Part shown: positions 8,393 through 26,696 of the stretch, in pieces
Position numbering within the stretch: position 1 is the stretch's first letter
Layout: the number at the start of each line of letters is the position of its first letter
Source: Candidatus Latescibacterota bacterium
GTDB taxonomy: Bacteria > Latescibacterota > UBA2968 > UBA8231
NCBI GenBank assembly: GCA_965243025.1
Contig: CBDETY010000003.1
Span: 2,851,506-2,883,505, forward strand
Direction: 5' to 3'
DNA: 32,000 nucleotides
Translations under genes and position numbers: made by a program
Notes under the pieces: model-generated
Told to the model about the DNA's origin: nothing
What the model saw: the letters and a program-made list of their open reading frames with translations, nothing else
The model's database searches: none

Positions 8393-8837
8393 CTGGAGGT
8401 GAAGCTGATCGGACGCGGCGTAGGGTTCGCGCGAAATTTCCAGGGAAGTAAGAGGCAAGCCGTCCCGGGTGTCCCATGCTTTCCAATCACAAACCTCATC
8501 CAAATGAAAGGATGAAAAAATGAAAGATCTTCTCATGCTCTCTGGCCCCCTGGGCTACCACCGGGGAGCGTATCTTGAGCGCAATCGAGCAGGCGGGTGA
8601 GCTTCTCACGAGCCGGACCGGTTTCGTGGGGAGTTCATCATGAACGAGAGCGGCTCGTATTGCCAATGCTACTGACTTCGGGGAGTCCCGATTAGCGTCA
8701 AAGTCGACAGCATGGTCGTAACTGACCTCGGCCATTCTCCGATCATGCAGTACTTCTGGAGTGTGGCCGAGGTTCTTTTTCATTCCTTCTTGTCCCGCTG
8801 CTTCAACACAGGGTTACAGATCAAAGGTGGAGTTCAA

Positions 8838-9746: not shown

Positions 9747-10239
9747 AGTTCCGGCCTCAACTCACCGCGGGATCTCTGAATCCACACCTCGCCGGTCAGC
9801 CTCAACGGACCCGGAACCTTCGTCCGCCACCTCGACCGCGAAGGCTCTTTCTGCACCCGCAAAAGCTCGTAGCAGGCGATCGGCCGTCGCGGCCACCCGG
9901 CCACCGGGGTGCCCTGCCTGGTTGCGCGCGCACCGGCCCCTGAGCGACGGTCCGCTTCGGCGGTAACCAACCCAGCGTCGATAAACTATCTTTGGTTCTC
10001 CCCCAAGCTTGCGGTGGACTCACAGTCCGAGACGGTCCCTGGGGCGGTCGGACCCCGGAATGCCGGGGAAATCGACGCCCCTTCCATTCCCGCCGGAGTT
10101 CGAGGCGGTGTGCCACAGGGAGGATTCCTGTCATGCGAGCCCCGGAAATCCGAATTGGCATTGACTTCCCGCTGACAGCGGTTGGCTGGAGGCCAGGCTG
10201 TTGATGAGCCGCTGCATCCCTTCACCGAGCTGATTGGAA

Positions 10240-11805
10240 ATGCGGGTCCTTATCAGACCTGGAGGAAGGCTTTATCCGGCATTCATTGCCTTTCTCGTCT
10301 CCGCCTGCTCTCTCGCACCGGGCCGGAACCCTCCGGTTCTCGATTCAATTGAAAAACTCCCCGGCGAGTTTGCGGGAAGTGAAATCGACGGTTCCCACCA
10401 ACCTGGTTCCCACCAACCTCTTGAGTGGTGGAAGGCTTTCGCCGACCCGGTCCTCGACCGGATAATCGAGGAGGTGCTCGCCTCGAACTTCGACCTCGCC
10501 GGAGCGGTCGCCCGGGTCGACCAGGCCAGGGCGCGGGAACGGATAGCGAGGGCGCCGGTGTTTCCGCTGCTCCAGCCTTCGGTCGGCGTCACCGACTTCG
10601 ACACACCGGCCAATGCGGGTATCGGCGCGCAACTGGACGAGGTTGGCCTGGGCCCGGACGCCCTGAGCGCATCCGGAATCGACATCCCCGACAGGCTCGG
10701 CCTGACCACCTGGCACATCGGCACCGAATTCGCCTACGAGCTCGATTTCTGGGGCCGCAACCGCAACGACGGGCGCGCCGCCGGAGCCGAGCGGCTGGCC
10801 TCCGAGTCCGACTACCTCGCTGCCCGCATGGGTGTGCTCGCCGAAACCGTGCGCACCTACCTGGAGATCGTCAACCTGCGCAGCCAGCGGAGGCTGGCAG
10901 GCGAAATCGTGGAAATCCTGCAGCACCGCGAGTCGCTGGCCGGGTCCCGTTACGGCCGCGGGCTGACCGATCTGACCCCCCTCCGCACGGCGCGGCGGAA
11001 CCTGCGCAACGCGCAGGCCGAGCTGCCGCAGATCGAAGCTGTGCTGGCGGATGCGGAGGGGCGGCTCCGGGTGCTCCTGGGAGGTTTCCGCGCGGAACTT
11101 GCAGACCTGATGCCGGAATCCATGAAGCCTTCCCCAACCCTCGAACCGGTTCCCGCGGGGATTCCGGCCGATCTCCTTGTGCAGCGGCCCGACGTCAGCG
11201 CCGCCAGGCAGCGGGTCGAAGCGGCGCGCTACTCGGTCGGCGCCCGCCGCGCCGAGCTGCTGCCGAGGCTGTCCCTGTCCGGCTCCATCGGGCTGCAGAG
11301 CACGGAGTCGGGTGAGTTGTTCAACCCCGACCAATGGTTCCGCAATCTCAGCCTGAACCTGCTCGGCCCCGTGTTTCAGGGGGCGCGGCTGCGCGGCAAT
11401 GTCGCCCTCGCGGAGGCCCGGCTGAACGAAGCCGCCGCGGCTTACGGGCGTTCGGTGGTGACCGCGGTAAGCGAGGTCGAAGCCGCCCTTGCGGGTCTGG
11501 AAGCGAGCCGCCGGCGCCACTCGCTGCTCGCATCCCTGGCGGAAGAGGCCCGGGCCGAATCGGCCTTGCAGGAGCAGCGGTACCTCTCCGGCGTGGGGGG
11601 CTACGAGGCTTTCCTGACCGCGGCCCACACCCTCCTAGGCGCACAGTCCGCACTGACGGCCGCGGAGCGCGACCTGGGTTATGCCCGTCTTGCCCTGCAC
11701 CGCGCGCTCGGAGGTTCGTGGACCGCTGACGAAGGGGAAACCGTCCGCCAGAGCGAAGCAGCCCCGGCCGCCCCGCCCCGTTCTCTTCCGACCTCCACGG
11801 AGTAA
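10240..11805 (+). CDS. RND efflux outer-membrane factor lipoprotein (NodT/OprM family)
   Basis: Lipobox FLVSAC, then the typical WWKAFADPVLDRIIEEVLASNFDLAGAVARVDQARA and duplicated OEP-type helical repeats. The ATG at 10240 is preferred over the TTG at 10234. Confidence 0.9.
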   Translation: MRVLIRPGGRLYPAFIAFLVSACSLAPGRNPPVLDSIEKLPGEFAGSEIDGSHQPGSHQPLEWWKAFADPVLDRIIEEVLASNFDLAGAVARVDQARARERIARAPVFPLLQPSVGVTDFDTPANAGIGAQLDEVGLGPDALSASGIDIPDRLGLTTWHIGTEFAYELDFWGRNRNDGRAAGAERLASESDYLAARMGVLAETVRTYLEIVNLRSQRRLAGEIVEILQHRESLAGSRYGRGLTDLTPLRTARRNLRNAQAELPQIEAVLADAEGRLRVLLGGFRAELADLMPESMKPSPTLEPVPAGIPADLLVQRPDVSAARQRVEAARYSVGARRAELLPRLSLSGSIGLQSTESGELFNPDQWFRNLSLNLLGPVFQGARLRGNVALAEARLNEAAAAYGRSVVTAVSEVEAALAGLEASRRRHSLLASLAEEARAESALQEQRYLSGVGGYEAFLTAAHTLLGAQSALTAAERDLGYARLALHRALGGSWTADEGETVRQSEAAPAAPPRSLPTSTE

Positions 11806-11811
11806 ACCCCC

Positions 11812-13023
11812 ATGTCCCGCATACGCAGCTTGATCGTTGCCGCCGCCATAATCGCGGTCTCCGTCGGCCTGGCGGCCTTTCTCGTTTCGCTGGCGCCGGA
11901 GCCGGCCCGCACCGAGCCGCCGCCGCCGGTCCCGTTCGCGCAGACCGGGCTGGTCAAGGCCGGGACCGGTCCCATACCGGTATTCGGAGCCGGTACGGTG
12001 AGGCCGAGCGCGGAGATCGCAATCACTCCGCAAGTCGGCGGCAAGGTCGTCTGGGTGCATCCGGGATTCCGCAGCGGGGGACGGGTCGGGAAGGGCCAGG
12101 CGATCTTCCGCATCGAGGAAGCGGAATACCAGTACCGGGTGCGGGAGGCAAAGGCCAATCTCGCCGCCCGGCGGGTGGCCCTGCTTCAGGAAGAGGAACA
12201 GGCCGCCATCGCCCGCGGCCAGTACGAGCTTTACTCCGGCAGCCGGGGAGATACGGCATCGGCCGCGGCAAATCCCCTGACTCTGAGAGAACCCCAGCTC
12301 GAAGCCGCCCGCGCCGCCATGGACCGCGACGAAGCCCGCCTTGCCGAGGCGAACCTCGCCCTGTCGCGAACCCGGGTGACGGCCCCCTTCGACGGCTTCG
12401 TGCGCGAGGAGTCCGTTGACGCGGGGCAGGTCGTGAGCCCCGGCCAGCCGGTCGGGCGGCTTTTCTCCGCCGATGCCGTGGAAGTGGTCGTGTCCCTGTC
12501 CGACGCCGACGCCGCCCTGATCCCGGGGCTGTGGCAACTCGAGGCAGGCGACGGGAACCGAAAGGTGGCCGCCCGGGTGGTCGCCCGCTACGGCGGGGAG
12601 AGCTTTTCCTGGGAAGGTTTCGTCGATCGGGGCGAGGCGTCCCTCGACGAACAGACGCGCACCATCGACGTGATCGTGCGTGTGCCGGACCCGTTTTCCG
12701 CGAGCGTTCCGGCTGGCGGGGCAGGCGTCCCCGGGGGCAACCCGCCGTTGCTGGTGGGTGAGTTCGTCGAGGTGGAAATCCAGGGCCTCGAGCTCGATGG
12801 CTACTTCGAGGTGCCGCGGGCTGCCCTGCGCGCCGGCGACGAGGTCTGGATGGTCGACGAGGGCGGAGTCGTGAGCATCGTTCCGGTACGGGTGCTGCAG
12901 CGGGCGGACGACCGGGTATTCGCGACCGGCAGCCTCGGAAGCGGCGGGGCGGTGATCACCGGCGGGATCCAGTTCGCCACCCAAGGCATGCTCGTCAGGA
13001 CCGGGGCGGACCCCTCGCCATGA
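11812..13023 (+). CDS. RND efflux periplasmic adaptor (membrane fusion protein, HlyD/AcrA family)
   Basis: N-terminal TM anchor, lipoyl-like motif ITPQVGGKVVWVHPGFRSGGRVGKGQAIFRIE and a coiled-coil hairpin. It starts 6 nt after the OMF stop, and its TGA overlaps the RND start (ATGA at 13020-13023). Confidence 0.9.
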   Translation: MSRIRSLIVAAAIIAVSVGLAAFLVSLAPEPARTEPPPPVPFAQTGLVKAGTGPIPVFGAGTVRPSAEIAITPQVGGKVVWVHPGFRSGGRVGKGQAIFRIEEAEYQYRVREAKANLAARRVALLQEEEQAAIARGQYELYSGSRGDTASAAANPLTLREPQLEAARAAMDRDEARLAEANLALSRTRVTAPFDGFVREESVDAGQVVSPGQPVGRLFSADAVEVVVSLSDADAALIPGLWQLEAGDGNRKVAARVVARYGGESFSWEGFVDRGEASLDEQTRTIDVIVRVPDPFSASVPAGGAGVPGGNPPLLVGEFVEVEIQGLELDGYFEVPRAALRAGDEVWMVDEGGVVSIVPVRVLQRADDRVFATGSLGSGGAVITGGIQFATQGMLVRTGADPSP

Positions 13024-16000
13024 GTCCCAACGACGATTTCCACGGGGAACGGCCCGGACCGCTCGCCTACATGGCGGGCAACGGCGTCGCCGCCAACCTG
13101 CTGATGTGGGCAATCATCGCCGCGGGACTGGTGTCGCTCACCGCCATCGAGCGCGAAGCCTGGCCGACCCAGTCCTTCTACCATATCGAAGTCTCCATGG
13201 CCTATCCCGGCGCCACGCCGGAGGAGATCGAGGAGTCGATCGTCGTAAAGATCGAGGACCAGGTCAGCGGGCTGGATGACGTGAAGGCGGTCAAGTCCGT
13301 AGCGGCCCCGGGCATGGCCTCGGTGCGGGTCCAGATGGATTACGACACCGACATGGCCCGGGCCCTGGACGATATCGAGTCTGCGGTCAGTCGCATACCG
13401 TCCTTCCCGGCCGGCGCCGAACGTCCGCGGTTCCGGGAGATGGACAACCGCATGAGCATTATGCGGCTCATCGTCCACGGCGACGTCTCCGAGCGCTCGC
13501 TGAAGGAACTGGCGTACCAGATCGAGGACGACCTCACCACGCTCCCCTCCGTCTCCCAGGTGGAAGTCAGCGGGGTCCGGAGCTACGAGATCTCCATCGA
13601 GGTTCCCCTTCACCGCCTGCGGGCCCTCGGACTCACGCTCACCGACATCGCCGGCACCATTCGCCGCAGTTCCCTGGACCTGTCGGCCGGCAGCATCGAT
13701 ACCCGGGAATCCCAGGTCCGGGTGCGCACCCTCGGCCAGAACTACGACCAGCAGGACTTCGAGGAGATCGTCCTTCTCAGCGGCCGTGACGGCACGGTCG
13801 TGCGCCTCGGCGATATCGCCGAGGTCCGCGACGGTTTCCAGGAAGCCGACCTGATCGTGCGGCACCAGAACCATCCCGCGGTCTTCGTCGAGGTCTACCG
13901 GGCCGGCGGCGAGCACGTGATGGACGTGGCCACCACCGTCCGCGAGCACCTGGCGAACGAGGTGATCCCGGCCCTGCCGGACGGCGTCGGCATCACCATG
14001 TGGAACGACGAATCCCAGGTCTATGAGGAACGCGCCGATCTTCTCCTCAAGAACGGGATCCTGGGCATGTTGCTGGTGCTGATCGCGCTCAGCCTGTTTC
14101 TCGAAATCCGGCTCGCGCTCTGGGTCGCCGTGGGCCTCGCCGTTTCGGGTATCGGCGCCCTCGCCGTCATGATGGCATTCGACGTGGCGATCAATACCAT
14201 CAGCCTGTTCTCCTTCGTCCTCGCCATAGGGATCGTCGTCGACGACGCCATCGTCGTGGCCGAGCACATTCGATACGAACGCCAGCGGGGAACACCCGGG
14301 GTCACGGCCGCGATCCGCGGGGTACGGCGGATAAAGGTGCCGTTGACGTTCGCAGTCCTCACGTCGGTGGTGGCCTTCGTCCCGCTGCTGTTCATCCCCG
14401 GCGGCATCGGCGACGTGTGGCGGGCCCTGCCGATCATCATGATCGCCATGCTGCTGGTTTCCCTGGTCGAATCGCTGCTGGTGCTGCCCAACCACCTGTC
14501 CCACCTGCACGGCCCGGAGTGGGTGCCGGCCAATGCCTTCGACCGGTTCTTCGCGGGGCTGCAGGGGCGCGTGGACGCGCTGCTGAACAGGTTCGTGCAA
14601 GGGCCCCTGGACCGGGCCCTGAGGTTCGCCACGGCCCAGCCCGGAGTGACGATGGCGGGGGCCGTGGGAATGCTCGTGCTGAGCATCTCCCTTTTGCCCG
14701 CCGGGATCGTTCCTACCACGCTGGCCGCTGACGTGGAGGGGGATATCGCGACGGTCGTCCTGGAGATGCCCGACGGGGCGACCGCTCCGAGGACGTACGA
14801 GGTGGCGCAGGAACTGGAGGCCGCGGGCAACCGGGTCATCGAACGACTCTCGCGCGGCCGGCCCGGGGACGCGTCGCCGCTGCTGACCGGCGTGACGGTG
14901 ACCGTCGGGCTGGGCTCGAGACTCGAGGGCGGGCTCAATCCGGAGCCCACCCTCAACCCGCAAGCCAATATCGCCACCATCGAGTTCAAGCTCCTGGGCG
15001 CCCAACAGAGAGAGATCTCCACCGGAGAGGTCGTGCAGGCATGGCGGGAGGAGGTGGGTGTGCTGCCGTACGTGCGCGGCATCACCTTCAGCAGCGAGGT
15101 CTTCGACCTGGGCAACCCTGTCGAGGCGGTGCTTTCGCATCCGCATCCGGAACTTCTCGCCGAGATCGCGGACTCGGTGGTCGAAGGCCTCCGAAGTGTG
15201 GATGGCGTCTACGACATACGTTCGGACCACACCCCGGGAATCCCGGAAGTTCAGCTCGAGCTGCTTCCGGAAGCGCGCACACTCGGTCTCACGCTCGAAG
15301 AGCTGGCCGGGCAAACGCGCGCCGCCTTCTTCGGCGCCGAGGCGGTCCGGGTGCAGCGGGGCCGCGAAGAGGTCCGGGTCTACGTGCGCCTGCCCGAAGA
15401 CGAGCGGAATTCGATCACCGACGTCGAAAGCTACCTGGTCCGCACGCCGGGCGGGGCCGAGGTCCCGGTCATGAGTGTGGCCTCCCTGAACCCGGGGGTG
15501 TCGCCGCCGGCCGTTCGACGGAAGGACGGCCAGCGCGTCGTCACGGTCACTGCGGACGTCGATGCTTCCGTGATTTCAGGCGACGAAGCCAACGACATCC
15601 TGGCCAATTCCATCCTCGCGGACCTGACCGCCCTGCACCCGGACCTGACATTCAGTTTCGGCGGGGAACAGCAACAGCAGCTCGAATCCCTGGACGCGCT
15701 GTACCGCGGGTTCGCGGTCGCCCTGATCATGATCTTCGCCCTCCTCGCCATCCCCCTCCGATCCTATACCAAGCCGTTCATAATCATGGCCGTGATCCCC
15801 TTCGGATTCATCGGAGTGATCCTGGGTCACTGGATCCTCGGAGTAGCCCTGAGCGCCGTATCCTTCATGGGGATCTTCGGCCTGAGCGGGGTGGTGGTGA
15901 ACGATTCCCTGGTCATGCTCGATTTCATCGATCAGAAACTCGGGGAAGGCGTCCCGGCAAGGACTGCGGTCGTGGAGGGAGCCAAGGGGCGCTTTCGTCC

Positions 16001-16214
16001 GATCATGCTCACTTCCCTGACTACGTTCCTCGGCTTCACGCCCCTCATCCTGGAACGCGCCATCCAGGCCCAGTTCCTGATCCCCTTTGCCGCCTCGCTC
16101 GGTTGCGGCATCCTCTTCACCACGGCCATACTCATGATGGTCGTTCCCGCGCTCTACACCATCCATCTGCGTCTGATTGCTTCGGGGCGCCGTTCCGGCA
16201 CCGGCAGCGCGTAG
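13020..16214 (+). CDS. RND efflux permease (AcrB/AcrD/AcrF superfamily, 1064 aa)
   Basis: Length and architecture are typical of 12-TM RND pumps. ACR_tran-like motifs include AIGIVVDDAIVVAEHI and GLSGVVVNDSLVMLDFI. Confidence 0.92.
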   Translation: MSPNDDFHGERPGPLAYMAGNGVAANLLMWAIIAAGLVSLTAIEREAWPTQSFYHIEVSMAYPGATPEEIEESIVVKIEDQVSGLDDVKAVKSVAAPGMASVRVQMDYDTDMARALDDIESAVSRIPSFPAGAERPRFREMDNRMSIMRLIVHGDVSERSLKELAYQIEDDLTTLPSVSQVEVSGVRSYEISIEVPLHRLRALGLTLTDIAGTIRRSSLDLSAGSIDTRESQVRVRTLGQNYDQQDFEEIVLLSGRDGTVVRLGDIAEVRDGFQEADLIVRHQNHPAVFVEVYRAGGEHVMDVATTVREHLANEVIPALPDGVGITMWNDESQVYEERADLLLKNGILGMLLVLIALSLFLEIRLALWVAVGLAVSGIGALAVMMAFDVAINTISLFSFVLAIGIVVDDAIVVAEHIRYERQRGTPGVTAAIRGVRRIKVPLTFAVLTSVVAFVPLLFIPGGIGDVWRALPIIMIAMLLVSLVESLLVLPNHLSHLHGPEWVPANAFDRFFAGLQGRVDALLNRFVQGPLDRALRFATAQPGVTMAGAVGMLVLSISLLPAGIVPTTLAADVEGDIATVVLEMPDGATAPRTYEVAQELEAAGNRVIERLSRGRPGDASPLLTGVTVTVGLGSRLEGGLNPEPTLNPQANIATIEFKLLGAQQREISTGEVVQAWREEVGVLPYVRGITFSSEVFDLGNPVEAVLSHPHPELLAEIADSVVEGLRSVDGVYDIRSDHTPGIPEVQLELLPEARTLGLTLEELAGQTRAAFFGAEAVRVQRGREEVRVYVRLPEDERNSITDVESYLVRTPGGAEVPVMSVASLNPGVSPPAVRRKDGQRVVTVTADVDASVISGDEANDILANSILADLTALHPDLTFSFGGEQQQQLESLDALYRGFAVALIMIFALLAIPLRSYTKPFIIMAVIPFGFIGVILGHWILGVALSAVSFMGIFGLSGVVVNDSLVMLDFIDQKLGEGVPARTAVVEGAKGRFRPIMLTSLTTFLGFTPLILERAIQAQFLIPFAASLGCGILFTTAILMMVVPALYTIHLRLIASGRRSGTGSA

Positions 16215-16245
16215 TGCAATTCACGATGCAGGGAGGCTGAGGCTG

Positions 16246-18279
16246 ATGGCTGATACTACCGAGGGCTTGACGACCCCACCCCTGACTCTGACCCAGGAAC
16301 TCATCCTGATGCTCCTCAACGAGGAGACCGGCTACTTTCACCAGGTACCCGGCTGGCACCTGAACTGCGCCGTGGTCGGTGCCGTGCTCGCGGAGCTTTC
16401 ACTCCAATCTCGCATCGACACGGACATGGAATCCCTCTTCCTCGTGGACGCGTCGGAAACGGGCAACCCGGCCCTGGACCCCATCCTCGAGGAAATCGCG
16501 AACGCACCGAGGCAACACAACGCCCAGTACTGGATCGAACGGCTCGCTCCCCGTGCCGAGTCGATCATCGATTCGGTCCTGGACCGCCTGGTTGACCTGA
16601 AGATCCTGGAATACCACGACGGCGAATTCTGGACACTGGCTCCTGCCGTCCGGCATGGGGAACTGTCCGGCACGTCGGAGGAGGGCACTGAGGGCCAGTT
16701 CATAAGGACCCGTATCAGCAGGGTCATCTTCACCGACGAGATACCCGATCCGAGAGATGTCATCATTATCTGCCTCGTCAATACCTGCGACGTATTCCGT
16801 TTCATATTCCAGCTCGACGACGAGGCGGAGGAGCGCATCGAGTTCATCTGCAGGATGGACCTGATCGGCCGCTCCCTGGCGGCTGCGGTCTCTCAGAACC
16901 TCGCCGGCCCGGCCCTTCAACGCCCTGCCCTTGCCAGGAAGATCCCGACGGTTTCGCTCACCAAGCTGCTGCGGAACCCCCATGTTCGAGACGGCAACCT
17001 GAACGCGCTCTTCGGGAGCCTTGCGGAGGAGTACGGTCCGGTGTTCCAGATCCGCCCTCCCTTCTCGAAGCCCATGATCTTCCTGGCCGGACTCGAGGCA
17101 AACCGCTGGGTGCACAAGCGGGGGCGCATGTACCTGAGAGCCAGGGACTACTTCAGCGACTTCGAGAAGGTCTACGGCGCCTCCGGCGTCCTGCCCGCCC
17201 TGGACGGCGCCGATCACTTCCGGCTTCGCAAGTCCCTGTCGCCGGCCTATTCCGCCGGGAGGCTGGGAGGGCAGCTGGACCAGCTCTACAACCAGGGGCG
17301 CAAGTACATGGCGAGCTTGACGGTAGGGGACTCCTACCGCGCCACGTCCATGTGCCGGGAGATGGTGAACGCGCAGCTCTCGCCGCTGTTCATCGGCGTC
17401 GAAACCCAGGACCTCATGGACGACCTGATGGCCTACAAAATGCGGGCCCTCAGCGTGCACATCGCCAAGCTCCTGCCAAGGTTCACGCTGAACACCCCGG
17501 GCATGAGACGCCGGGCGAAAGCCCTGGACATACTGATGCAGCGGGTCGAGAGCGTCCATACCCCCGCCCAACGGGCGGACAGCCCGCGGGACCTGGTGGA
17601 CGATTACCTCAGCTTGCACGCGAGCGACCCCCAGTTTCTCCCGGAGTCCAACCTGCGGTTCGCCTTTTCCGCGGCCCTGATCGCCAGCGTGTACCTCGGG
17701 GATACGTTCAGCCTCGTAGTCTACGCCATGGCGTCGCAGCCCGACCTCTACGCCCGGATCCAGGCCGAAGCAGATGCCCTGTTCGCCAAGGGCGACCCCG
17801 AAAGAGAGGACTTCACCCCCGCCAACATCGACGTGACGCACCGCTTCCTGATGGAGTGCCTGCGCATGTACCCCATCGTCTCCATGTCCATTCGGAACGT
17901 GATGAATACCTGCGTGGTCGAGAATCACGAGCTGCCCATGGGGGAACGGATCCACATCGCCATGACCGCCACGCATTACATGAGCGACGTCTTTCCCGAC
18001 CCCTGCAAGTTCGACATCGACCGCTACCTGCCGCCGCGCCATGAGCATCGCAACCCCGGGTACGCCCCGTACGGGCTGGGCACGCACAAGTGTCTCGGCA
18101 CCCGCTGGATGGAGCTGCACCTGGCGGCCAACCTGCTGATGCTGGCGCACTACTTCACTATTGAGGTGTCCCCGGAGAAGTACAAGACCAAGCTCCGTTT
18201 CAGTCCCTTTCCGTCGCTGAAACCGAGCAAGAAGCTGAAGTTCCGCATCTCCGGGCAGAGGCGCGAGCTGCCCGCCTGA
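16246..18279 (+). CDS. Fusion protein: N-terminal GPP34/GOLPH3-like domain plus C-terminal cytochrome P450
   Basis: GGGAGG at 16231-16236 lies 9 nt before ATG 16246. The N-terminal ~220 aa (LTLTQELILMLLNEETGYF...AVVGAVLAELSLQSRI...WIERLAPRAESIIDSVLDRLVDLKIL) follow the GPP34 pattern. The P450 part has ExxR (ECLR), a PERF-like FDIDRYL and the heme loop YAPYGLGTHKCLG. Confidence 0.85.
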   Translation: MADTTEGLTTPPLTLTQELILMLLNEETGYFHQVPGWHLNCAVVGAVLAELSLQSRIDTDMESLFLVDASETGNPALDPILEEIANAPRQHNAQYWIERLAPRAESIIDSVLDRLVDLKILEYHDGEFWTLAPAVRHGELSGTSEEGTEGQFIRTRISRVIFTDEIPDPRDVIIICLVNTCDVFRFIFQLDDEAEERIEFICRMDLIGRSLAAAVSQNLAGPALQRPALARKIPTVSLTKLLRNPHVRDGNLNALFGSLAEEYGPVFQIRPPFSKPMIFLAGLEANRWVHKRGRMYLRARDYFSDFEKVYGASGVLPALDGADHFRLRKSLSPAYSAGRLGGQLDQLYNQGRKYMASLTVGDSYRATSMCREMVNAQLSPLFIGVETQDLMDDLMAYKMRALSVHIAKLLPRFTLNTPGMRRRAKALDILMQRVESVHTPAQRADSPRDLVDDYLSLHASDPQFLPESNLRFAFSAALIASVYLGDTFSLVVYAMASQPDLYARIQAEADALFAKGDPEREDFTPANIDVTHRFLMECLRMYPIVSMSIRNVMNTCVVENHELPMGERIHIAMTATHYMSDVFPDPCKFDIDRYLPPRHEHRNPGYAPYGLGTHKCLGTRWMELHLAANLLMLAHYFTIEVSPEKYKTKLRFSPFPSLKPSKKLKFRISGQRRELPA

Positions 18280-18290: not shown

Positions 18291-19322
18291 GTGGGGCTGG
18301 GAAAGCTTTCGAGAGAGCTGAGAGACGCGTACCGGGGATCGCCCGTGGCGCGGCGGGTCCGGCACTTCGAGGGCTGGCTCGACCGGGCGGCGGCGGAGCC
18401 AGGTGGCGCGGGGTACGACCACACTGAAACAGCGAAAGACTATTACGACCTCTGCAGCGGGTTCATGGTGTGGGGCTGGGGCGAATCCCTGCACTTCGCC
18501 CCCCTCACGCCTCATGAGAGTCTGGAGGAGTCCAAGGTCCGGCACCAGCGGGCGATGATCTCCGAGTTGGAGCTGCAACAGGGTATGACGGTGGTCGACG
18601 TCGGTTGTGGGGTCGGCGGCCCCATGCGCCGCGTCGTCCGTGAGGCCGGGGTCAGGGTCGTGGGCATCAACATCAATGAGATCCAGTTGGAAATGGCGAA
18701 GAGGTTGAACGCCGAGGCGGGGCTCGATCACATGGTCGATTTCGAGACCTGCAGCTTCATGGACATGAGCGCCATCGAGGACGACACCTTCGACCGGGGG
18801 TATGCCATAGAGTCAACCTGCCATGCGCCGGACAAGCAACGCGCCTTCGAGGAGGTTTTCCGCGTGCTGAAACCCGGTGCCCTGTTCTGGGGGCAGGAAA
18901 TGTGTCTGACGGACAAGTTCGATCCGCAGGACGACCGGCACCGGGCCATCGAGCAGGATCTCATGCGCGGCATTGCGCTGAAGGACATCGCCACCTTCGG
19001 GGAAGTGGATCACGCGCTCCAAGCCGCGGGATTCCAAGTCATGGAAGGGATGGACCGGGACGTCCAGGAGGGACCCTCCACACCTTGGTACAAGCCCATG
19101 GAGAGTCGCCACGGGGCGTTGGGCAACGCCTTGCGCAGGCTTCCGTGGGGCCGCAAGGCCTTCCTCGCAGGATCGAAGCTGGCGGAAGTGCTGCGGCTCT
19201 TTCCGAAAGGCTCCGCCGAAGTGGTCCGATTCCTCGATCGAACCGCGCAGGCTTATGTCGCGGGGGGCAAGGCGGGAATCTTCACGCCGCTGTACTGTTT
19301 TCTGGCTCGCAAGCCTCTTTAA
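18291..19322 (+). CDS. Sterol C-24 methyltransferase (ERG6/SMT1-like, SAM-dependent)
   Basis: GTG start 11 nt after the P450 stop, with GAGG 9 nt upstream. All SMT signature blocks are present: YYDLCSGFMVWGWGESLHFAP, VDVGCGVGGP, YAIESTCHAP, TPWYKPMES and the C-terminal LFPKGSAEV...VAGGKAGIFTPLYCFLARKP. From memory, yeast ERG6 has YYNVVTDFYEYGWGSSFHF, LDVGCGVGGP, YAIEATCHAP, IPWYYPL and GLAPEGSKEV...VAGGKSKLFTPMMLFVARKP. Confidence 0.9.
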   Translation: MGLGKLSRELRDAYRGSPVARRVRHFEGWLDRAAAEPGGAGYDHTETAKDYYDLCSGFMVWGWGESLHFAPLTPHESLEESKVRHQRAMISELELQQGMTVVDVGCGVGGPMRRVVREAGVRVVGININEIQLEMAKRLNAEAGLDHMVDFETCSFMDMSAIEDDTFDRGYAIESTCHAPDKQRAFEEVFRVLKPGALFWGQEMCLTDKFDPQDDRHRAIEQDLMRGIALKDIATFGEVDHALQAAGFQVMEGMDRDVQEGPSTPWYKPMESRHGALGNALRRLPWGRKAFLAGSKLAEVLRLFPKGSAEVVRFLDRTAQAYVAGGKAGIFTPLYCFLARKPL

Positions 19323-19433: not shown

Positions 19434-20519
19434 TTACCCGACCTCGCCGGACTCTGCCGTTTCACCCCCGGCGCCGTCCGGCTCAAGTTGCGGATAGAAC
19501 TGCCGGCAGTACCGGCGGTACTGCCCTATGGGGCCGTCGGCCGCACACAGCCTGGGGACAGGCCGGTACTGCTTCCGCTCCCAGATCACCACGTCCTGCA
19601 GGACATCCTGTTGCTGTTGTGACAGCAGAATGCGGTTCATCAGCCTGCTGCGAAGCTTCATCGGAAGAAACCCCAGGCCCGAGATGAACCGCCGCGGCCT
19701 GCGGATGTCCCGCATCTGGCTGACCAGTGCGAGATCGATGAGAGTGCCGTCAACGGGCGTTGCCAGCACCCACAATCGAGTATTCATACCGATGGTTTTC
19801 TCGTGGATTTCGACGAAGGAGTACCCCAGTCCATGGACGTGGGTGACGGCCGAGGTTTCGTGCACGAGGTCCTTTACCCCCAGGATCCTGCGGACCCGTT
19901 TGAAATCGAAGCAGCTCTTCAGGTAGGGGCCGTCGACCGTGACCGTACCGACCGGATTCACGTTGTCGTAGCCGTGCACGTAGCGCAGGTGTCCCAGGTC
20001 CACGGAGTTCTCGGCCGTCTCCTGGGGATGGCCGCGGAACCGGAGGGTCCTGAATCCCGGCTTCCCCCACTCCGGGCCGCCGGGGGGGTCGTCCGGAAGG
20101 TGCCAGTGCGGAGGACGGCCGCCGCTGCCGAACCAGGCGAAGACCATGCCGAGGATCTCCCTGGTCTCGTAAACCTTCAGTTTCGCGGCTTTGGGAGCCG
20201 GGGCGTTCGGAGTGGCGACGCACTGGCCGGTCGTGTCGAACTCAAACCCGTGAAACGGACAGACGAGGCGGCCGTCGCACACCTGGCCGCCGACCTCCGG
20301 CCCCAGGTACGAACCCAGGTGGGGACATACCGCGTCGGCCACGCAGACTCGGCCTGCCTCGTCGCACCAGGCGACGATTTCCTCCCCCAGCCAGGTTTTC
20401 TCGATCAGTTTCTCACGCAGAATGGACTCGCGGGTTTCTACGAAATACCACCCCTCGGGGAACGCCGGCAACTCGTCGATTCGATTCAAGGCAGGTCGTT
20501 GGGAGTTGCTGACTGGCAT
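19434..20519 (-). CDS. Rieske [2Fe-2S] non-heme iron oxygenase (Neverland / KshA / SdmA-like, sterol-type)
   Basis: Rieske motif CPHLGSYLG...CPFHGFEF and mononuclear iron motif ENSVDLGHLRYVH. I placed the start at ATG 20519 (MPVSN..., GGA-rich stretch ~9 nt upstream); the longest ORF starts at a TTG at 20567. Confidence 0.8.
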   Translation of the reverse strand: MPVSNSQRPALNRIDELPAFPEGWYFVETRESILREKLIEKTWLGEEIVAWCDEAGRVCVADAVCPHLGSYLGPEVGGQVCDGRLVCPFHGFEFDTTGQCVATPNAPAPKAAKLKVYETREILGMVFAWFGSGGRPPHWHLPDDPPGGPEWGKPGFRTLRFRGHPQETAENSVDLGHLRYVHGYDNVNPVGTVTVDGPYLKSCFDFKRVRRILGVKDLVHETSAVTHVHGLGYSFVEIHEKTIGMNTRLWVLATPVDGTLIDLALVSQMRDIRRPRRFISGLGFLPMKLRSRLMNRILLSQQQQDVLQDVVIWERKQYRPVPRLCAADGPIGQYRRYCRQFYPQLEPDGAGGETAESGEVG

Positions 20520-20613
20520 GTCCGGAGATCCTGTCATCAGCACCGAGATAATATCAGAGTTATGCAAGTTCCCTGGTATGAAATGCCCAGGGGGGAACCC
20601 GAGGGTGATTCAG

Positions 20614-21765
20614 TCACCTGACTGAACCACCGCCGCCGTGAACTTCGACCGTCATGTGATCGAAACGATCCCGGTCCCACTGCGCTCCCCAGCCCGGTTC
20701 CGTCGATGGGGTGATTTGTCCGTCCTCGATGACCGGGGTGTTGAGCATGCCCCAGACCGCCCCCTTGTCGGTGAAGTCGTCGAGCCCCGCCTCGTAGAAG
20801 CTGGTGTTTTCAATGCAGCAGCCCAGGTGGGCATGGACCTGTCCGAACAGTCCCCCTTCGGCGTTCAACTCGACGGTTGTGCCGTGCATCTCGGCGAAGT
20901 GGGCCATCTTCAGCACCTGGGTGGCTCCGAAACGGGCGTTTGCCCGCAGCAGGTCGGTGGCTCCCGATATCAGTCTTTGCGTCGACAGGCCGATATCCCC
21001 CATCAGCGTCTCGTTTCCCATGACCGGCATGTCCAGTTCCCGGCAGAGCACCCGATACTGATTCTCTTTCTGCTCGTGCATCGGCTCTTCCAGCCAGACG
21101 AAGTCGAGCTCTTCCATCACGTGACCGACCTCTATGGCTTCCCGCAGCGTGTAGGAACAGACCGGGTCGTTGAGTAAAAGGTAATCAGGGCCTACTGCGT
21201 CGCGGACCTCCCGGAAAATCGGAATGTCCGCTTTGCCCCCTTTGTAACTGTGGAATTTGTAGGCGTCGATTCCGCGCTTCCTGCCCTCCTCGATCACCTC
21301 CAGGTACACCTCGAGCGGGCTGTCGCTGCTGGTGAGGTACACCGGGAAACGATCGCGCACCCGGCCGATGAGGTCGCAAACAGGCATGCCCGCCGCTTTG
21401 CCGAGGATATCCCACAGGCAGTTGTCGAAGCTGCCCGCCCAGCCGGCGGTCCCCTGATACATCCAGCGGTTGCCCTTCCACAGCAGCTGATAGAGCCGTT
21501 CCCGATTCAGCGGATTTTCCCCCAGAACCTGGGTTCGCAACACCTCGGCCTGGCCGGGTGTCATAGTCGTCGTGGAGATCCCGTCGATGCCTTCGTCGGT
21601 CTGCACTTTCAGGAAGTTCATCCGCAAAGGTTTGTCGCTTGCAAAGCTCTTTCCACCGTGGGTGTACTGGATCCGCGACAGTCCCGGCACTTCCCGGAGT
21701 TTGAAGCAAGGCTGTTTCTGTTCCGGATTTTCGAGAACGATCAGTTTCACTTCCGTTATTCTCAT
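20614..21765 (-). CDS. Enolase-superfamily enzyme (mandelate racemase / muconate lactonizing / acid-sugar dehydratase-like)
   Basis: MRITEVKLIVLE..., DNCLWDILGKAAGMPVCDLIG and metal-ligand contexts LLLNDP and FVWLEEPM. The start at ATG 21765 is preferred, with 21831 as the alternative. The gene ends 46 nt upstream of the Rieske ORF. Confidence 0.8.
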   Translation of the reverse strand: MRITEVKLIVLENPEQKQPCFKLREVPGLSRIQYTHGGKSFASDKPLRMNFLKVQTDEGIDGISTTTMTPGQAEVLRTQVLGENPLNRERLYQLLWKGNRWMYQGTAGWAGSFDNCLWDILGKAAGMPVCDLIGRVRDRFPVYLTSSDSPLEVYLEVIEEGRKRGIDAYKFHSYKGGKADIPIFREVRDAVGPDYLLLNDPVCSYTLREAIEVGHVMEELDFVWLEEPMHEQKENQYRVLCRELDMPVMGNETLMGDIGLSTQRLISGATDLLRANARFGATQVLKMAHFAEMHGTTVELNAEGGLFGQVHAHLGCCIENTSFYEAGLDDFTDKGAVWGMLNTPVIEDGQITPSTEPGWGAQWDRDRFDHMTVEVHGGGGSVR

Positions 21766-21918
21766 GTCTCTGGCGAGCCTGTTGAGAGGATTTGTCTGTT
21801 CGGTCGATCCTGCAGACAGCGAGCGAGGCATCTGTCCAGTCTGCCTCGATGCTCGATGTCAGGGGTGTGACCCGGGCCTTTCTGGTACAAGCCGCCTGGA
21901 AACCACGCTTGTTGCCGG

Positions 21919-24582
21919 CTAGTAAACCACCGCGACGGTGCGGATGACATCGCTCTGGTCGAGGCCGGCGCCCTTGTCGTCGGCCTCGACGTGGAAGCGG
22001 AGAACATACATCCCGGGAGGGACACATCTGCCGGCCTCGTCCTCACCGTCCCATTTCAGCTCGTATTCACCTGCGCCCACCTCCCCGCGTTTTCGCAGGG
22101 TGCGCACGGGCCGACCGCTCAGGTCGTGGACGGACACCTCCACCGCACGGCTTGCCCCCACGAGAACGACCGCGAAACGGAGGACAAGCTCGTCGTTGAC
22201 GCCGTCGCTGTTCGGGGTGAAGACCGGAGGTAGAATATCGAAGGCCGTCATGAGCTGTCGGCGTTGCTGAACCCCTACCACTACCAGGCTGTTGCTGTCG
22301 ACGCCGCGGGCGGCATCGCCCCCGTCCACCTGCTGCCAGACCGTCTCTCCGTCGCCGGCGAAGCGGGCAAACGCCTGCACCTGCCCGCCGACGGAAAACA
22401 GACGGCCCGTGAAGTCGAGGCGAAGCACCTCGATGCCCTCTTCCGGTTCGATGAGGGGAAAGGCGACCAGCAGACTGTCCTCGGAGGTGTCGAGCTGTAT
22501 GGCGCCCTCAATGGCGAAGGGGGAGGACAGACCTCCTTCCGCCAGCAGGTCCTGCTCCGCTCCGGCGAGTATGCGGCTGAAGACATCCAGGCTCATGCCG
22601 TCAGGCGCGGTGAGCAGCAGTCCGTCGAAGCCCGGGTTCCCGCGGCCGAAGTCCGGCCGCACGTACAGGGAAAAGGGCCATTCCACCGCCAGCGACTCGA
22701 CCCTCCCCGGGGTCACCTCCCCCAGAAAACGCTGCGCCAGCGGGTCGGAGTACTTCAGTCGCACGCTGCGCAGGGCGGCGGCGGCCTCGGGGCTGTCCGA
22801 GATCAGGGTGGCGCGCATCTGCACGAAGTTGCGCGGCGACGGCGAGGTGATGCGGCTGCCGGACACCCGGTACGGCTCGCTCCAGGCACTGGCGTCGCTG
22901 CCCATGACCTCCTCGATGACGATGTCCCCTCTGAGAGTATTGGGGGGGAGTTTGACCTTCGGGTTGGGCTCCTTGAGCTTGTCGTACCTCTCCGCGGTCA
23001 CCTCCTCGCCGAGGCCGTTGTAATAATGGCTTACCTCCGACTTCGTGCTGCTGGTGCGGGTCTGCAGGAAGACGCCGGTCCCCGGAGGGGTGTCGGCGTC
23101 CCACTCGATGGAGGTCAGCGTGCGCGTCCCCCCCGGGTCGATGAGGGGTGACTCGAGGCTCACCCGCGGCTGAAACCCATCGCCGTACATCTGCAGCTCG
23201 GTGATCGGAAAATTGACAATGTTCACTCCTCTTTCATACACGATCCTGAAGTATCGAGCCTGCAGGGGCGCCCCGAAGCTGTGGCGCTCGGCTTCCATCT
23301 GGGTTCTGTGCACCTCGTAAAACCGGCCCCCTTCCCCCCGGCGGCCTCGAAGCTTGGCCACCGGGACCTGCTCGATGCGCTTGCCCGTGACCCAGTTGGG
23401 GCTGCCGTCGACCTGCCGGGAACCGTCGGAGAAATCGAGCTGGAAATTCCCGAACGTGTAGTTGTGACCGGCACCCCGCAGGTTCATGAGGATCCTCAGG
23501 CTGCTGATCCAGAAGGACGACCCGAGATCCACGACCATTTCAGGCACGAGCGCCTTCTGGACCTGGAGGGGAAAAGCGGTCAGCACGTTGCCGTCGAACA
23601 TGTCGCCAGGAGCAGCTTCGCTCGGGGGCTGGGTCGCAACGCCGCCCCCCCGTTCGAGGAGTCGGCGCGCCAGGTCTTCCCCCTCCTCCCAGACCTCGAG
23701 CTCTGCCAGACGAGGCCGTTCGCGGCGATAGTGGCGGATCGGTCCCCGCCGCTCCTCGGGCACGAGGAGGTAGTTTTCTTCCGGCACGGCAAGCAGCCGT
23801 CCATCGCTCAGGCGTTTGGTGAATTCCACCGCACCCCTGACTTCCTCAGGAAGCTCCCGGTACGTTTCGGCGTCGACCTCCACACCGCGGCCAAGGCGCG
23901 ATCCGCGCACGATCACCTGGACGTAGCGGGCGACCATGGTGCGGGCATTGTCCGGCACCTCGGAAAAGTCGATCTCGAACAGGCGCCGGGTCGTGTTCGG
24001 CGTGAACAAGCGCAGGACGGGCAGGTATTCGAGGGATTCCCCGGCGAGGGTGGAGACCGGTTTCTGCCCGTCCGAGGTCAGCACGTCGAAAAGCAGAAAG
24101 GGATCGCCCAGATCCTCGTCGACAAAGCGCAGCACGATCCGGTTGAGGACGACGACGCGGCCCAGATCGAGGGTGAACCACCACCGGGACGGGATGTCGG
24201 CTCCCTCGGGAAGGGGGCCAGGCTCCCAGAAAGTTGCCGCATCCCCGTCCAGGACTCCGGGTACCCCTTCACGATTCGAGCCCGCGGCGACGGCGTCGAG
24301 AAGGTCGATCTCCTCCGGCGCCTTGCCGGCCAGGTGTTCCGGGGGCCGCTCGCGGAGGAAATCGACAATGCGGTCCCTGGCGTTGGTATCCATGGTCCAG
24401 CGCCTCGGTTGCACGCCGGAAGGAAGAAGCTCCACCGTGCCCACGGGAAACAGCCAGTGCTCCCAGTGCTCCGGAGTGTCGGCCACGATCTGACGCCCGG
24501 TGCGGTCCAGCCGGTACGCGCCGGCCTGGCCCCAAAGGGAGGTGCTCGTGAACACGAGCACGGCAAGGGCGACGGCGAACAC
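21919..24582 (-). CDS. Large secreted protein (~887 aa) with discoidin-like domain(s) and a C-terminal FTPNxDGVND / FlgD-Ig-like domain
   Basis: Proposed GTG start at 24582, 16 nt after the upstream stop, gives a hydrophobic N-terminus FAVALAVLVFTSTSLWGQA. LDGDAATFWEP resembles a discoidin (F5/8 type C) domain. The C-terminus FTPNSDGVNDELVLRF...VHDLSGRPVRTL...GEYELKWDGEDEAGRCVPPGMYVLRF resembles FlgD-Ig / T9SS-type sorting domains. Confidence 0.7.
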   Translation of the reverse strand: MFAVALAVLVFTSTSLWGQAGAYRLDRTGRQIVADTPEHWEHWLFPVGTVELLPSGVQPRRWTMDTNARDRIVDFLRERPPEHLAGKAPEEIDLLDAVAAGSNREGVPGVLDGDAATFWEPGPLPEGADIPSRWWFTLDLGRVVVLNRIVLRFVDEDLGDPFLLFDVLTSDGQKPVSTLAGESLEYLPVLRLFTPNTTRRLFEIDFSEVPDNARTMVARYVQVIVRGSRLGRGVEVDAETYRELPEEVRGAVEFTKRLSDGRLLAVPEENYLLVPEERRGPIRHYRRERPRLAELEVWEEGEDLARRLLERGGGVATQPPSEAAPGDMFDGNVLTAFPLQVQKALVPEMVVDLGSSFWISSLRILMNLRGAGHNYTFGNFQLDFSDGSRQVDGSPNWVTGKRIEQVPVAKLRGRRGEGGRFYEVHRTQMEAERHSFGAPLQARYFRIVYERGVNIVNFPITELQMYGDGFQPRVSLESPLIDPGGTRTLTSIEWDADTPPGTGVFLQTRTSSTKSEVSHYYNGLGEEVTAERYDKLKEPNPKVKLPPNTLRGDIVIEEVMGSDASAWSEPYRVSGSRITSPSPRNFVQMRATLISDSPEAAAALRSVRLKYSDPLAQRFLGEVTPGRVESLAVEWPFSLYVRPDFGRGNPGFDGLLLTAPDGMSLDVFSRILAGAEQDLLAEGGLSSPFAIEGAIQLDTSEDSLLVAFPLIEPEEGIEVLRLDFTGRLFSVGGQVQAFARFAGDGETVWQQVDGGDAARGVDSNSLVVVGVQQRRQLMTAFDILPPVFTPNSDGVNDELVLRFAVVLVGASRAVEVSVHDLSGRPVRTLRKRGEVGAGEYELKWDGEDEAGRCVPPGMYVLRFHVEADDKGAGLDQSDVIRTVAVVY

Positions 24583-24598
24583 GGGAACCGCACCCCTT

Positions 24599-26599
24599 TC
24601 AATAGGCCAGGGAGACGACGCGGCTTGCCGCGAAGGTGGCGTCGTCGGTTTCGACCTCGAGTCGCAGCACGTAGATGCCGGGGGGCAGGAGCTTGCTGTT
24701 GCCGTCCATGCCGTCCCAGGAGACGGTATGGGGTCCGCTTGCACGTTGCGCCAACGGCAATTCGGCCCGGCGCCTCCCGGTCAGATCGAACACCTTCAGG
24801 CTTACGGGCACAGCCGCCGACAGGTTCACGAGATCGAAGCGGATGTGGAGAAGGTCGTTGACGCGGTCGCCGTTGGGGGTGAACAGCCCGGTGGAAACCT
24901 CGATCTCCTCGAGCACCCGCCCCCCCACCTCGGCCAGTTCGACGGTGAGGGAGTTGCTCTCGGCCAGAAAGTCGGCATCCCCCGGCTCCAGCAACTGAGG
25001 AACCTCCCACGGTCGGGTACTGTTGGAGACCCTGCCCTCGAACACCGTGCCGTAGTCGTAGATGCGGGCCTTGAAGACCACGGTCACGACCTCCCCGGTC
25101 CGGCGGGCGTCAATTCGCGGCAGGTCGACCTCGAACCCGGTCGAGTCGACCGTTGCCCGCCATTGCGAGAACTCCAGAGAAACTCCGTCGATGGCGACCG
25201 ATTCGACGCTGTCGACAGGCGTCGGTGTGGTGATCCGGATGCGGTCGAAGCCCAGGTCCCCCGTCCTGATCTCCGGCCGCAGGAAGAGGGTGAAAGGGGT
25301 CGACTCTCTGGCCTCGGCCTGTCGCGGTTCAATTTCGGCCACGGCGCGGGTCGCAGCCTGTGGTCGGGTCACCGGAAACTCGAGGTAGTCGAGGCGGCCG
25401 CCCGCATGGAAGTCCCCTCTGAACTGCACGTACCGGCGGGGGCGGCTGGTGCGGAATTCCGCCGCCTGGTCGACGAATCCCAGGGGCGCGCTCCAGTTCG
25501 ACCAGTTGTCGAGATCCGGGGCGGTGCCCCCCTGCGCACCCGGCTCCAATCCGAGATAGGCGGTCCGGTCCAGGGGATCACCCTCGGGGTTGTAGCGGCT
25601 CCGTTCGGCCCCCCGAAAGGTTTTGCGGAAGTAAATGTTGGGATCGGCGGTATCGCCGCTGCGCAACCGCAGATCCACCCTCGCTCCCGGGTGGAGCACT
25701 CCCGACCAGGCGATAGGGCCCAGAATCGCGAACTCCTCCAGATCGATCACGTTGGAGGTATAGTTCGAGCTCACGACGAACCCATCGGCGTAGACCTCGA
25801 ACTCCGCGATCCACCAGTTCCCGATCTCTGCGATGAAGATGATGTTCTGCACCGGTTCGCCCGAAAAATCGAACTCGAGCACCCCGCTCGTGTTGTCCAG
25901 GACCTCCCTGACGACATCGAAGTCCATGCTGAGGAACCCAACCCCATCCGCCTGCTTGTACCAGATTTCTCTCTCGCGAAATCCGATCCTCAACGGATCG
26001 CCGTCGTTGATTCCGAGGGTGTAGGTGGGAATGTACCTGTCCTCTTCGGTTCCCGGCGGGGGGTACAGGCGAACTGTGCGCAGGGGAAACACCCCCGGCA
26101 GGGTCAGCCAGATGTATTTACACCTTCCCTGGTAGGTATCATAGCCTTGAACGCGATCGGCATCGCCGCAATAGGGTGCGGCCTGGCCGCCGATATAGGT
26201 GCCGCCACTCTGGTAGAAGGTCTGAAAATCCCCATCCCACATGACCTCCATGCCGGGTTCGAACTGGAACCCGTTGTACGTCTCCCACGATTTGATGGTG
26301 CCGCCCCCGTCCATGACGGTGGGCACGAGGTTCATATCGCCGGCCACGAATTGGGGACGGATGGAATCGGGACGGATTTCGACGAGACGGGAGCTGCCGA
26401 AAGGCCGCGCGTTGAGCTGTTCCCACGAGAGCTGGACGAACCGCAAGGAGTCGGCCGGGGCGCCCAGGGCGTCGGGGTCCGGAGGGGGAATGCTCTCGCC
26501 GCCGATCCGGTAGATCGTCAGGCCCGAACTCTGGGACAGCCCCATCAGGCCCGCGGCCCAACAGCACAGAATCACCAGCCGAGTCGACAGAGATCTCAT
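24599..26599 (-). CDS. Large secreted protein (666 aa), paralogous in architecture to the downstream gene
   Basis: Signal peptide MRSLSTRLVILCCWAAGLMGLSQS, discoidin-like WIAEFEVYADGF, a shared WS.P...R.(Y/F)VQ.R motif, and the C-terminus FTPNGDRVNDLLHIRF...VFDLTGRRRAEL...HTVSWDGMDGNSKLLPPGIYVLRL. Confidence 0.7.
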   Translation of the reverse strand: MRSLSTRLVILCCWAAGLMGLSQSSGLTIYRIGGESIPPPDPDALGAPADSLRFVQLSWEQLNARPFGSSRLVEIRPDSIRPQFVAGDMNLVPTVMDGGGTIKSWETYNGFQFEPGMEVMWDGDFQTFYQSGGTYIGGQAAPYCGDADRVQGYDTYQGRCKYIWLTLPGVFPLRTVRLYPPPGTEEDRYIPTYTLGINDGDPLRIGFREREIWYKQADGVGFLSMDFDVVREVLDNTSGVLEFDFSGEPVQNIIFIAEIGNWWIAEFEVYADGFVVSSNYTSNVIDLEEFAILGPIAWSGVLHPGARVDLRLRSGDTADPNIYFRKTFRGAERSRYNPEGDPLDRTAYLGLEPGAQGGTAPDLDNWSNWSAPLGFVDQAAEFRTSRPRRYVQFRGDFHAGGRLDYLEFPVTRPQAATRAVAEIEPRQAEARESTPFTLFLRPEIRTGDLGFDRIRITTPTPVDSVESVAIDGVSLEFSQWRATVDSTGFEVDLPRIDARRTGEVVTVVFKARIYDYGTVFEGRVSNSTRPWEVPQLLEPGDADFLAESNSLTVELAEVGGRVLEEIEVSTGLFTPNGDRVNDLLHIRFDLVNLSAAVPVSLKVFDLTGRRRAELPLAQRASGPHTVSWDGMDGNSKLLPPGIYVLRLEVETDDATFAASRVVSLAY

Positions 26600-26696
26600 G
26601 GTTGCGAGCTCGAGAAAGCGCCGGATCGCCTTATTGCGATTCTCCAGTTTGGAATGAACCTATGAAAAACAAAGGTTCCTTCGAAAGACCCCCAGG

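Follow-up and report, generated by a model that had tools for sequence, protein, structure and literature searches.

Sterol methyltransferases (SMTs) of the ERG6 type carry a conserved aromatic block in Region I, and a gene in which this block is broken raises the question of whether its product still alkylates C-24 of a sterol side chain, alkylates it more often than usual, or does something else. Such a gene is found at 18291–19322 of a 32,000-nucleotide stretch of contig CBDETY010000003.1 from a Candidatus Latescibacterota bacterium (the whole stretch is referred to below as the window). Its product, the window SMT, reads FMVWGWG where yeast ERG6 reads FYEYGWG. It belongs to a clade of sponge- and coral-symbiont proteins sharing this signature (the MVW clade), and we lean towards the view that it is a working S-adenosylmethionine (SAM)-dependent methyltransferase, derived from SMTs as a separate paralog clade, that acts on a non-canonical steroid acceptor. 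The features of the gene are as follows.

18291–19322, plus strand: SMT-family methyltransferase gene, 343 aa, MVW symbiont clade (open reading frame, Pfam, identity to ERG6, close homologs at 75–100%)
18441–18506, plus strand: equivalent of Region I, residues 51–72, YYDLCSGFMVWGWGESLHFAPL (translation and alignment)
18594–18623, plus strand: SAM-binding Region II, VDVGCGVGGP, residues 102–111 (yeast D125xGxGxxGP133), retained (alignment)
18894–18902, plus strand: Region IV positions Q202 and M204 (yeast Y223 and W225), aromatics replaced across the clade (specificity-position analysis)
18972–18974, plus strand: Ile228, yeast position 249 (G-I-A-L, canonical G-N/D-G/A-I/L) (alignment)
19134–19316, plus strand: Sterol_MT_C domain (PF08498), residues 282–342 (Pfam, E = 4.3e-16, 59 bits against a 21.7-bit cut-off)

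Results

An ERG6 Homolog with an Altered Region I

The open reading frame (ORF) at 18291–19322 (+) starts with a GTG codon. It is a genuine gene and not a chance ORF, because its product has more than 2,700 database homologs and because the ratio of nonsynonymous to synonymous substitution rates (dN/dS), calculated against 61 orthologs, has a median of 0.18 (the maximum is 0.25). Besides Sterol_MT_C, Pfam recognizes a class I SAM methyltransferase core in the 343-aa product (Methyltransf_11, 1.7e-17). A BLASTP comparison with yeast ERG6 gave 35.5% identity over residues 19–342 (E = 2e-66), and identity to functional bacterial SMTs was 42–44%. The preliminary description of this DNA, made from the letters and ORF translations, had aligned the protein with ERG6 as far as a C-terminal FTP...ARKP tail and had pointed out the FMVWGWG block; both observations are borne out, since the tail is present (GIFTPLYCFLARKPL) and codons 18462–18482 (+) translate to FMVWGWG. 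The ERG6 reference sequence agrees with 36 residue/number anchors of Brown & Welander 2025 and gives exactly the published ERG6 identities of two Nitrospira proteins (35.63% and 38.81%). A PDB search with the window SMT returned no true SMT structure, the best matches being RebM, MitM, and similar enzymes, and an NCBIfam search returned no SMT model, with every match under its cut-off.

In yeast numbering, Region I of the window SMT reads C77 S78 G79 F80 M81 V82 W83 G84 W85 G86 E87 S88 L89 H90 F91. The ERG6-type aromatic signature, Y81-E82-(Y/F/W)83-G-W-G-x-x-F89-H90-F91, is lost at Y81, E82, and F89, and W85, H90, and F91 are retained. Among 105 canonical representatives, Y81 is found in 84%, E82 in 78%, and F89 in 86%. 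The tryptophan at position 83 is ordinary (18 of the 105 have it), so the oddities of the region are M81, V82, and L89, together with C77, S78, and L94.

These oddities are shared by relatives of the window SMT. M81, V/I/M82, and L89 are present in every one of its 120 closest database homologs (75–100% identity). In the wider SMT family, sampled as 150 representatives at 50% clustering, nearly all sequences read (T)DFYE(Y/F/W)GWGxSFHFA, and the form M-x-(W/Y/F) ... SLHFAPL appeared only in fragments or in relatives of the MVW clade. A neighbor-joining tree places deeper relatives (P0154, P0160, P0155, P0156, and P0158), which join the core clade successively and all have SLHFAPL. The clade can be defined by C(S/N/G)x(F/L)M(V/I/Q)(W/Y/F)(G/S/A)W(G/S/N/A)xSLHFAPL, Q223/M225, I249, and an adjoining gene for a GPP34–cytochrome P450 fusion, all of which the window SMT and its locus display. 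The MVW block is a clade-wide signature, not a private or point variant. Outside the clade, hardly any SMT-family representative shows it.

The G84-W85-G86 triplet, nearly invariant elsewhere, varies in 18 of the 120 clade homologs (GWS, GWN, GWA, SWG, AWG, and LWG; the variants include P0051, P0060, P0063, P0067, P0070, P0080, P0083, P0084, P0092, P0109, and P0114), and W85, H90, and F91 are constant throughout. This variation may be a further sign that constraints on Region I are altered in the clade.

The Sterol Pocket and the Catalytic Core

Residues were compared in a MAFFT alignment of 121 clade members and 105 canonical sequences, on ERG6 numbering. Thirteen positions are fixed differently in the two sets: Y81M, E82V, F89L, A112I, A143V, D177S, P182S, Y223Q, W225M, E246M, L290M, L348Y, and Y46F. 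In sterol-binding Regions I and IV and around position 249, four aromatic and three acidic residues have given way to aliphatic or neutral ones. Q223 and M225 each have a frequency of 0.99 in the clade, against 0.03 and 0.02, respectively, in canonical SMTs; Y223 is a known site affecting product number in SMTs. At position 249, whose equivalence to Ile228 is fixed by the alignment and by the G-x-(G/A)-(I/L) register of characterized SMTs, the window SMT has Ile where canonical SMTs have N, D, T, or G. Published models place residues 81 and 249 no farther than 5 Å from the side chain of the docked sterol.

The core residues of the window SMT, namely, the SAM motif, H90, E195, D125, D189, D276, and W286, are unchanged, and the SAM-binding motif and catalytic residues are invariant in 62 aligned orthologs. 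Brown & Welander 2025 list 25 residues common to all functional SMTs; the window SMT has 23 of them, the exceptions being T78 (Ser) and F89 (Leu). Judging from the alignments, the part of the sterol pocket that handles the side chain and the carbocation appears to have been rebuilt in a coordinated way, with the SAM site and the catalytic core left intact.

The Number of Methyl Transfers

The preliminary description had suggested that the block influences product outcome, shifting it, for example, toward 24-ethyl or further alkylated side chains. The general part of this suggestion stands: Region I binds sterol, residue 81 in it tunes the number of methyl transfers in several SMTs, and it is plausible that the block changes what the enzyme does. 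The proposed direction of the change is unsupported. Among Y81 mutants of yeast ERG6, 24-ethyl sterols were formed by Y81F only and not by the W, A, I, L, or V substitutions, so sequential methylation is raised by Phe at this position and not by aliphatic residues. Replacing Region I aromatics of soybean SMT1 with Leu abolished the second methylation. Propylating bacterial SMTs need Gly249, together with Phe at 81 and/or 83, and a G249I substitution in such an enzyme left C28 products only, with C29 and C30 lost; the window SMT combines Ile249 with Met81 and Trp83. The one point on the other side, besides the tuning role of residue 81, is that W83 is typical of SMT2-like sequences. Also against additional alkylation are the clade-wide nature of the signature and the assay record of an 81% identical ortholog, which did not carry out even a first methylation.

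An Assayed Ortholog

This ortholog, P0073, reads FMVYGWGESLHF, has I249, and lies on locus L026/L084, which is the Nitrospirales contig from Porites lutea on which Brown et al. 2023 drew. Because contig, gene order, and ERG6 identities all match, P0073 can be equated with IMG 2682229270 (“Nitrospira sp., coral reef 2 of 2”). It is the only member of the clade to have been assayed. Supplementary Figure 1 of the 2025 preprint of Brown & Welander places it in the “No activity” group for desmosterol and 24-methylenecholesterol; its canonical neighbor, IMG 2682229274 (“Nitrospira sp., coral reef 1 of 2”), is functional. The inactivity agrees with T78 and F89 being conserved in every functional SMT (Brown & Welander 2025). 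No difference of substance separates IMG 2682229270 from the window SMT: both belong to the same clade, read FMV(Y/W)GWGESLHF, have I249, and are encoded in the gene cassette described below. Two further proteins, “A. aerophoba 10000835 2 of 2” and “T. swinhoei Chromatiales 2 of 2”, are probably members of the clade as judged by their ~35% identity to ERG6.

Gene Neighborhood

The genes next to the SMT gene in the window are listed below.

10234–11805, plus strand: OEP gene (Pfam)
11812–13023, plus strand: membrane-fusion protein gene (Pfam)
13020–16214, plus strand: AcrB-type permease gene (Pfam, NCBIfam)
16177–18279, plus strand: GPP34 (GOLPH3-like)–cytochrome P450 fusion gene, “GPP34_L” (Pfam); likely start ATG 16246, 677 aa
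19434–20567, minus strand: KshA-family Rieske oxygenase gene, convergent with the SMT gene (Pfam Rieske and KshA_C); start probably TTG 20489 or ATG 20519

The first three make up a tripartite resistance-nodulation-division (RND) efflux system (10234–16214, +) directly upstream of the P450 and SMT genes and on the same strand. The likely start of the GPP34-P450 gene at ATG 16246 corresponds to the gene call in locus L088, from a strain with a 99% identical SMT. The SMT gene starts 11 nt after the GPP34-P450 stop codon, with GAGG 9 nt upstream of its GTG, and is the last gene of a co-directional, tightly packed run. The solved structures nearest to the Rieske protein are 3-ketosteroid 9-alpha-hydroxylases (KshA); those nearest to the P450 domain are, weakly, CYP51s.

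Across 83 loci containing MVW-clade genes, the SMT gene is linked to GPP34-P450 in 78, to a Rieske/KshA_C gene in 69, to a gene for an amine-oxidase-type flavoprotein in 40, and to AcrB in 39, with gene order and orientation varying among the loci. A 55%-identical SMT relative, encoded on a contig with 47% guanine and cytosine (GC), also has a GPP34-P450 homolog next door. The SMT-linked AcrB homologs are 71–93% identical in metagenome-assembled genomes (MAGs) of different phyla, and the pump therefore travels with the cassette. Most loci have no sterol-synthesis gene near the cassette; in eight, mostly from Nitrospirales, it directly adjoins a canonical CYP51-ERG24-SdmA-SdmB-SMT sterol cluster.

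In the Nitrospirales version of the cassette (L084 6074–9908 and equivalents), a gene for an outer membrane beta-barrel protein replaces the RND pump, and the amine-oxidase-type flavoprotein gene is present; a 31-aa ORF overlaps the SMT start, and the canonical sterol cluster lies immediately beside. One homolog, P0058 (477 aa), contains SMT-like sequence together with a KshA_C domain match, and represents either a genuine fusion of SMT and Rieske proteins or a gene call that runs through a stop. Rare GPP34-Rieske fusions have been reported (PMC11706023). Fusions of these two kinds would be “Rosetta-stone” hints that the proteins of the cassette cooperate.

Distribution and Horizontal Transfer

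A scan of one genome per species yielded at least ~550 matching stretches, in symbiont genomes from at least 10 phyla; 80 of the stretches were fetched to list their hosts. The 80 come from MAGs of Gemmatimonadota, Latescibacterota, Dehalococcoidia/Chloroflexota, Nitrospirales, Nitrospinota, Acidobacteriota, Binatia, Rhodothermales, Opitutales, and Actinomycetes, and many of the isolate names refer to sponges (Aplysina, Ircinia, Rhopaloeides, and Coscinoderma) or to a coral (Porites lutea). Synonymous divergence (dS) between the window gene and its orthologs is 0.25–1.5 even when the ortholog is from Nitrospirales or Dehalococcoidia. These values are far under saturation and are therefore incompatible with vertical descent between phyla. 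The GC content of the P450-SMT-Rieske block is 63%, against 70% in the flanks of the window; no flanking repeats that would mark a mobile element were found in the window. Genes of the MVW clade are selectively maintained and have spread horizontally between phyla.

Other Features of the Window

Comparison with L088, in which shared flanking DNA is 96–97% identical, reveals a 6.2-kb segment of the window (20498–26672) that is absent from the related strain; in L088, a hydantoinase gene directly follows the Rieske gene. The boundary of the insertion falls at the 5′ end of the Rieske gene, which is why the Rieske ORF of the window is over-long (377 aa). The segment contains the following genes.

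20614–21831: enolase-superfamily (MR/MLE) gene
21919–24744 and 24599–26599, minus strand: two large ORFs with FlgD_ig / F5_F8_type_C domains

A region upstream of the efflux operon (8336–9638) has a low GC content (~58%) and also differs between the window and L088. It overlaps a 344-aa ORF (8712–9746) that has no Pfam match, and at the equivalent place L088 has no called gene. Other long ORFs lacking Pfam matches are found at 514–2877 (−), 3158–4348 (+), and 30633–31634 (−). Many long opposite-strand ORFs overlap in this 64–73% GC sequence and may be spurious. Promoter and terminator scans of the window gave matches at chance level, and tRNA and Rfam scans gave none.

Discussion

According to the reading we favor, the window SMT would leave ordinary delta-24 sterols (for example, desmosterol and 24-methylenecholesterol) untouched, and would instead methylate a different steroid acceptor or a different position. 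The acceptor would most likely be made by the GPP34-P450 protein, the KshA-type Rieske oxygenase, and, often, the amine-oxidase-type flavoprotein; the co-transcribed RND pump may move the product or the substrate, and the whole could constitute a mobile module for steroid tailoring and export. A precedent for an SMT-family offshoot with a remodeled pocket is STRM-1/4-SMT of nematodes, dinoflagellates, and haptophytes, in which the aromatic signature of Region I is gone and the methyl group is placed on C-4 of A-ring-saturated 3-oxo sterols. The window SMT shows a partial loss of Region I aromatics. The likeness is a mechanistic analogy, and the STRM/4-SMT enzymes are eukaryotic.

Several points weigh against this reading. 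The steroid assignment rests on gene neighborhood and on the weak similarity of the partner enzymes, and the 32-kb window contains no oxidosqualene cyclase (OSC) gene or other sterol-synthesis gene. The “No activity” result comes from E. coli lysate and might be due to weak expression, an unstable protein, or the lack of a partner and not to specificity (instability in vitro is notorious among STRM enzymes), and only two substrates were tried on the ortholog. An AlphaFold2 model built with a 62-sequence clade alignment has a mean predicted local distance difference test (pLDDT) score of 58, with values <50 across Region I and the C-terminal domain, and is of too low a confidence to map the altered residues onto the pocket.

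The differences from characterized enzymes can be stated precisely. With yeast ERG6 and plant SMT1/SMT2, the window SMT shares the SAM core, the Region II motif, H90, E195, W286, Sterol_MT_C, and colinearity over ~325 residues; it differs from them by Y81M, E82V, F89L, T78S, Y223Q, W225M, and N/D249I, and also by its bacterial host, its location in a cassette, and the inactivity of its ortholog on two delta-24 sterols. Functional bacterial SMTs (Brown et al. 2023), for example, IMG 2682229274 and the propylating enzymes of A. aerophoba and Chlamydiae, come from the same environments and, in Nitrospirales, from the same gene neighborhood. Unlike the window SMT, they have DF(Y/F)E(F/Y)GWGxSFHF and G or N at position 249, and their genes sit in an OSC-CYP51-ERG24-SdmAB cluster, not beside GPP34-P450.

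The alternative that survives best, though we consider it unlikely, is that the window SMT is an ordinary single C-24 methyltransferase requiring another sterol nucleus, for example, lanosterol, a 4-methyl or 4,4-dimethyl sterol, zymosterol, or a delta-5,7 or delta-7 sterol. The preference of plant SMT1 for cycloartenol offers a parallel, and Brown & Welander themselves say that inactive homologs may need other sterols. The retention of 23 of the 25 functional-SMT residues, including H90, E195, and the SAM motif, fits such an enzyme, and the presence of a canonical SMT in the adjoining Nitrospirales sterol cluster suggests a division of labor. Nevertheless, the changes concentrate in the side-chain/carbocation pocket and not in the regions expected to read the nucleus, and Y81, E82, and F89 are each kept in 78–86% of the 105 canonical representatives, whatever their nucleus preference.

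Less probable again is a bacterial sterol methyltransferase acting away from C-24, either at C-26/27, yielding aplysterol or 26-methylstigmastane-type sponge sterols, or at a C-4-type position of the nucleus. Its substrates would be sterols of the host or of symbionts, its partners the GPP34-P450 and the KshA-like oxygenase, and gene transfer would have carried it through the sponge microbiome. The hosts of the cassette do not obviously share any single unusual sterol.

There is also a slim chance, slightly smaller still, that the protein no longer methylates steroids or olefins. SMT-like methyltransferases of Botryococcus act on squalene and botryococcene, and the acceptor could be an acyclic or other triterpenoid; or, alternatively, a hydroxyl installed by the P450 or the Rieske enzyme could be O-methylated. 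The loss of four cation-pi aromatics and three acidic residues fits a reaction that involves no side-chain carbocation, the flavoprotein partner is amine-oxidase/CrtI/HpnE-like and hence of a family acting on linear isoprenoids (weak N-terminal matches only), and sterol-synthesis genes are missing near most cassettes. The KshA-type Rieske and CYP51-like P450 similarities, on the other hand, point to steroids, as do the eight loci in which the cassette adjoins a sterol cluster and the retained Sterol_MT_C domain.

A catalytically dead paralog with a structural or regulatory role is very improbable. The “No activity” record of the ortholog and the variation of GWG in 18 of 120 homologs would be accounted for in this way, but the SAM motif and catalytic residues are invariant in 62 orthologs, the median dN/dS is 0.18, and the cassette has reached at least ~550 stretches among species-representative genomes. 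As for the idea of a pocket loosened by MVW, in which two or three rounds of C-24/C-28 methylation would give ethyl or propyl side chains, it is largely refuted already by the mutant and ortholog data given above, and we attach almost no weight to it.

The family itself is not new, and a protein of the MVW clade has already been cloned, with inactivity as the reported result. The horizontal transfer of sterol-synthesis clusters and the enrichment of SMTs in sponge symbionts are known as well. An earlier paper describes the GPP34_L fusion as confined to sponge symbionts and proposes that it modulates phagocytosis (PMC11706023); the gene upstream of the window SMT encodes the same fusion, with the same restriction to host-associated bacteria of many phyla. 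That paper makes no mention of sterols, lipids, or methyltransferases, and analyzes flanking genes for short GPP34 in Actinobacteriota only. In the literature searched, we found no description of the MVW clade and its pocket signature, its scale, or its cross-phylum mobility, nor any of the fixed partnership in which an SMT-like gene is joined by GPP34_L, a Rieske oxygenase of the KshA type, and an RND pump; no other paper there connects the fusion with sterols, lipids, or methyltransferases.

One “inactive” bacterial SMT homolog is no dud; it belongs to a large, maintained, and mobile clade. A negative assay becomes a defined question, namely, what sponge and coral symbionts methylate and export. 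GPP34_L, hitherto discussed only as a modulator of phagocytosis, is tied by its neighborhood to steroid-like lipid chemistry. In practical terms, the M81/V82/L89/Q223/M225/I249 signature separates MVW genes from true 24-SMTs when SMTs are counted in metagenomes as a measure of sterol alkylation potential. The oldest chemical evidence used for animals consists of side-chain-methylated steranes (24-isopropylcholestane and 26-methylstigmastane); this reading of the biomarkers is already complicated by bacterial SMTs, and the enzyme responsible for C-26 methylation is still unidentified. If methylation away from C-24 were the true function of the clade, a “sponge” biomarker would have a bacterial source, and GPP34_L would have a role in lipid chemistry.

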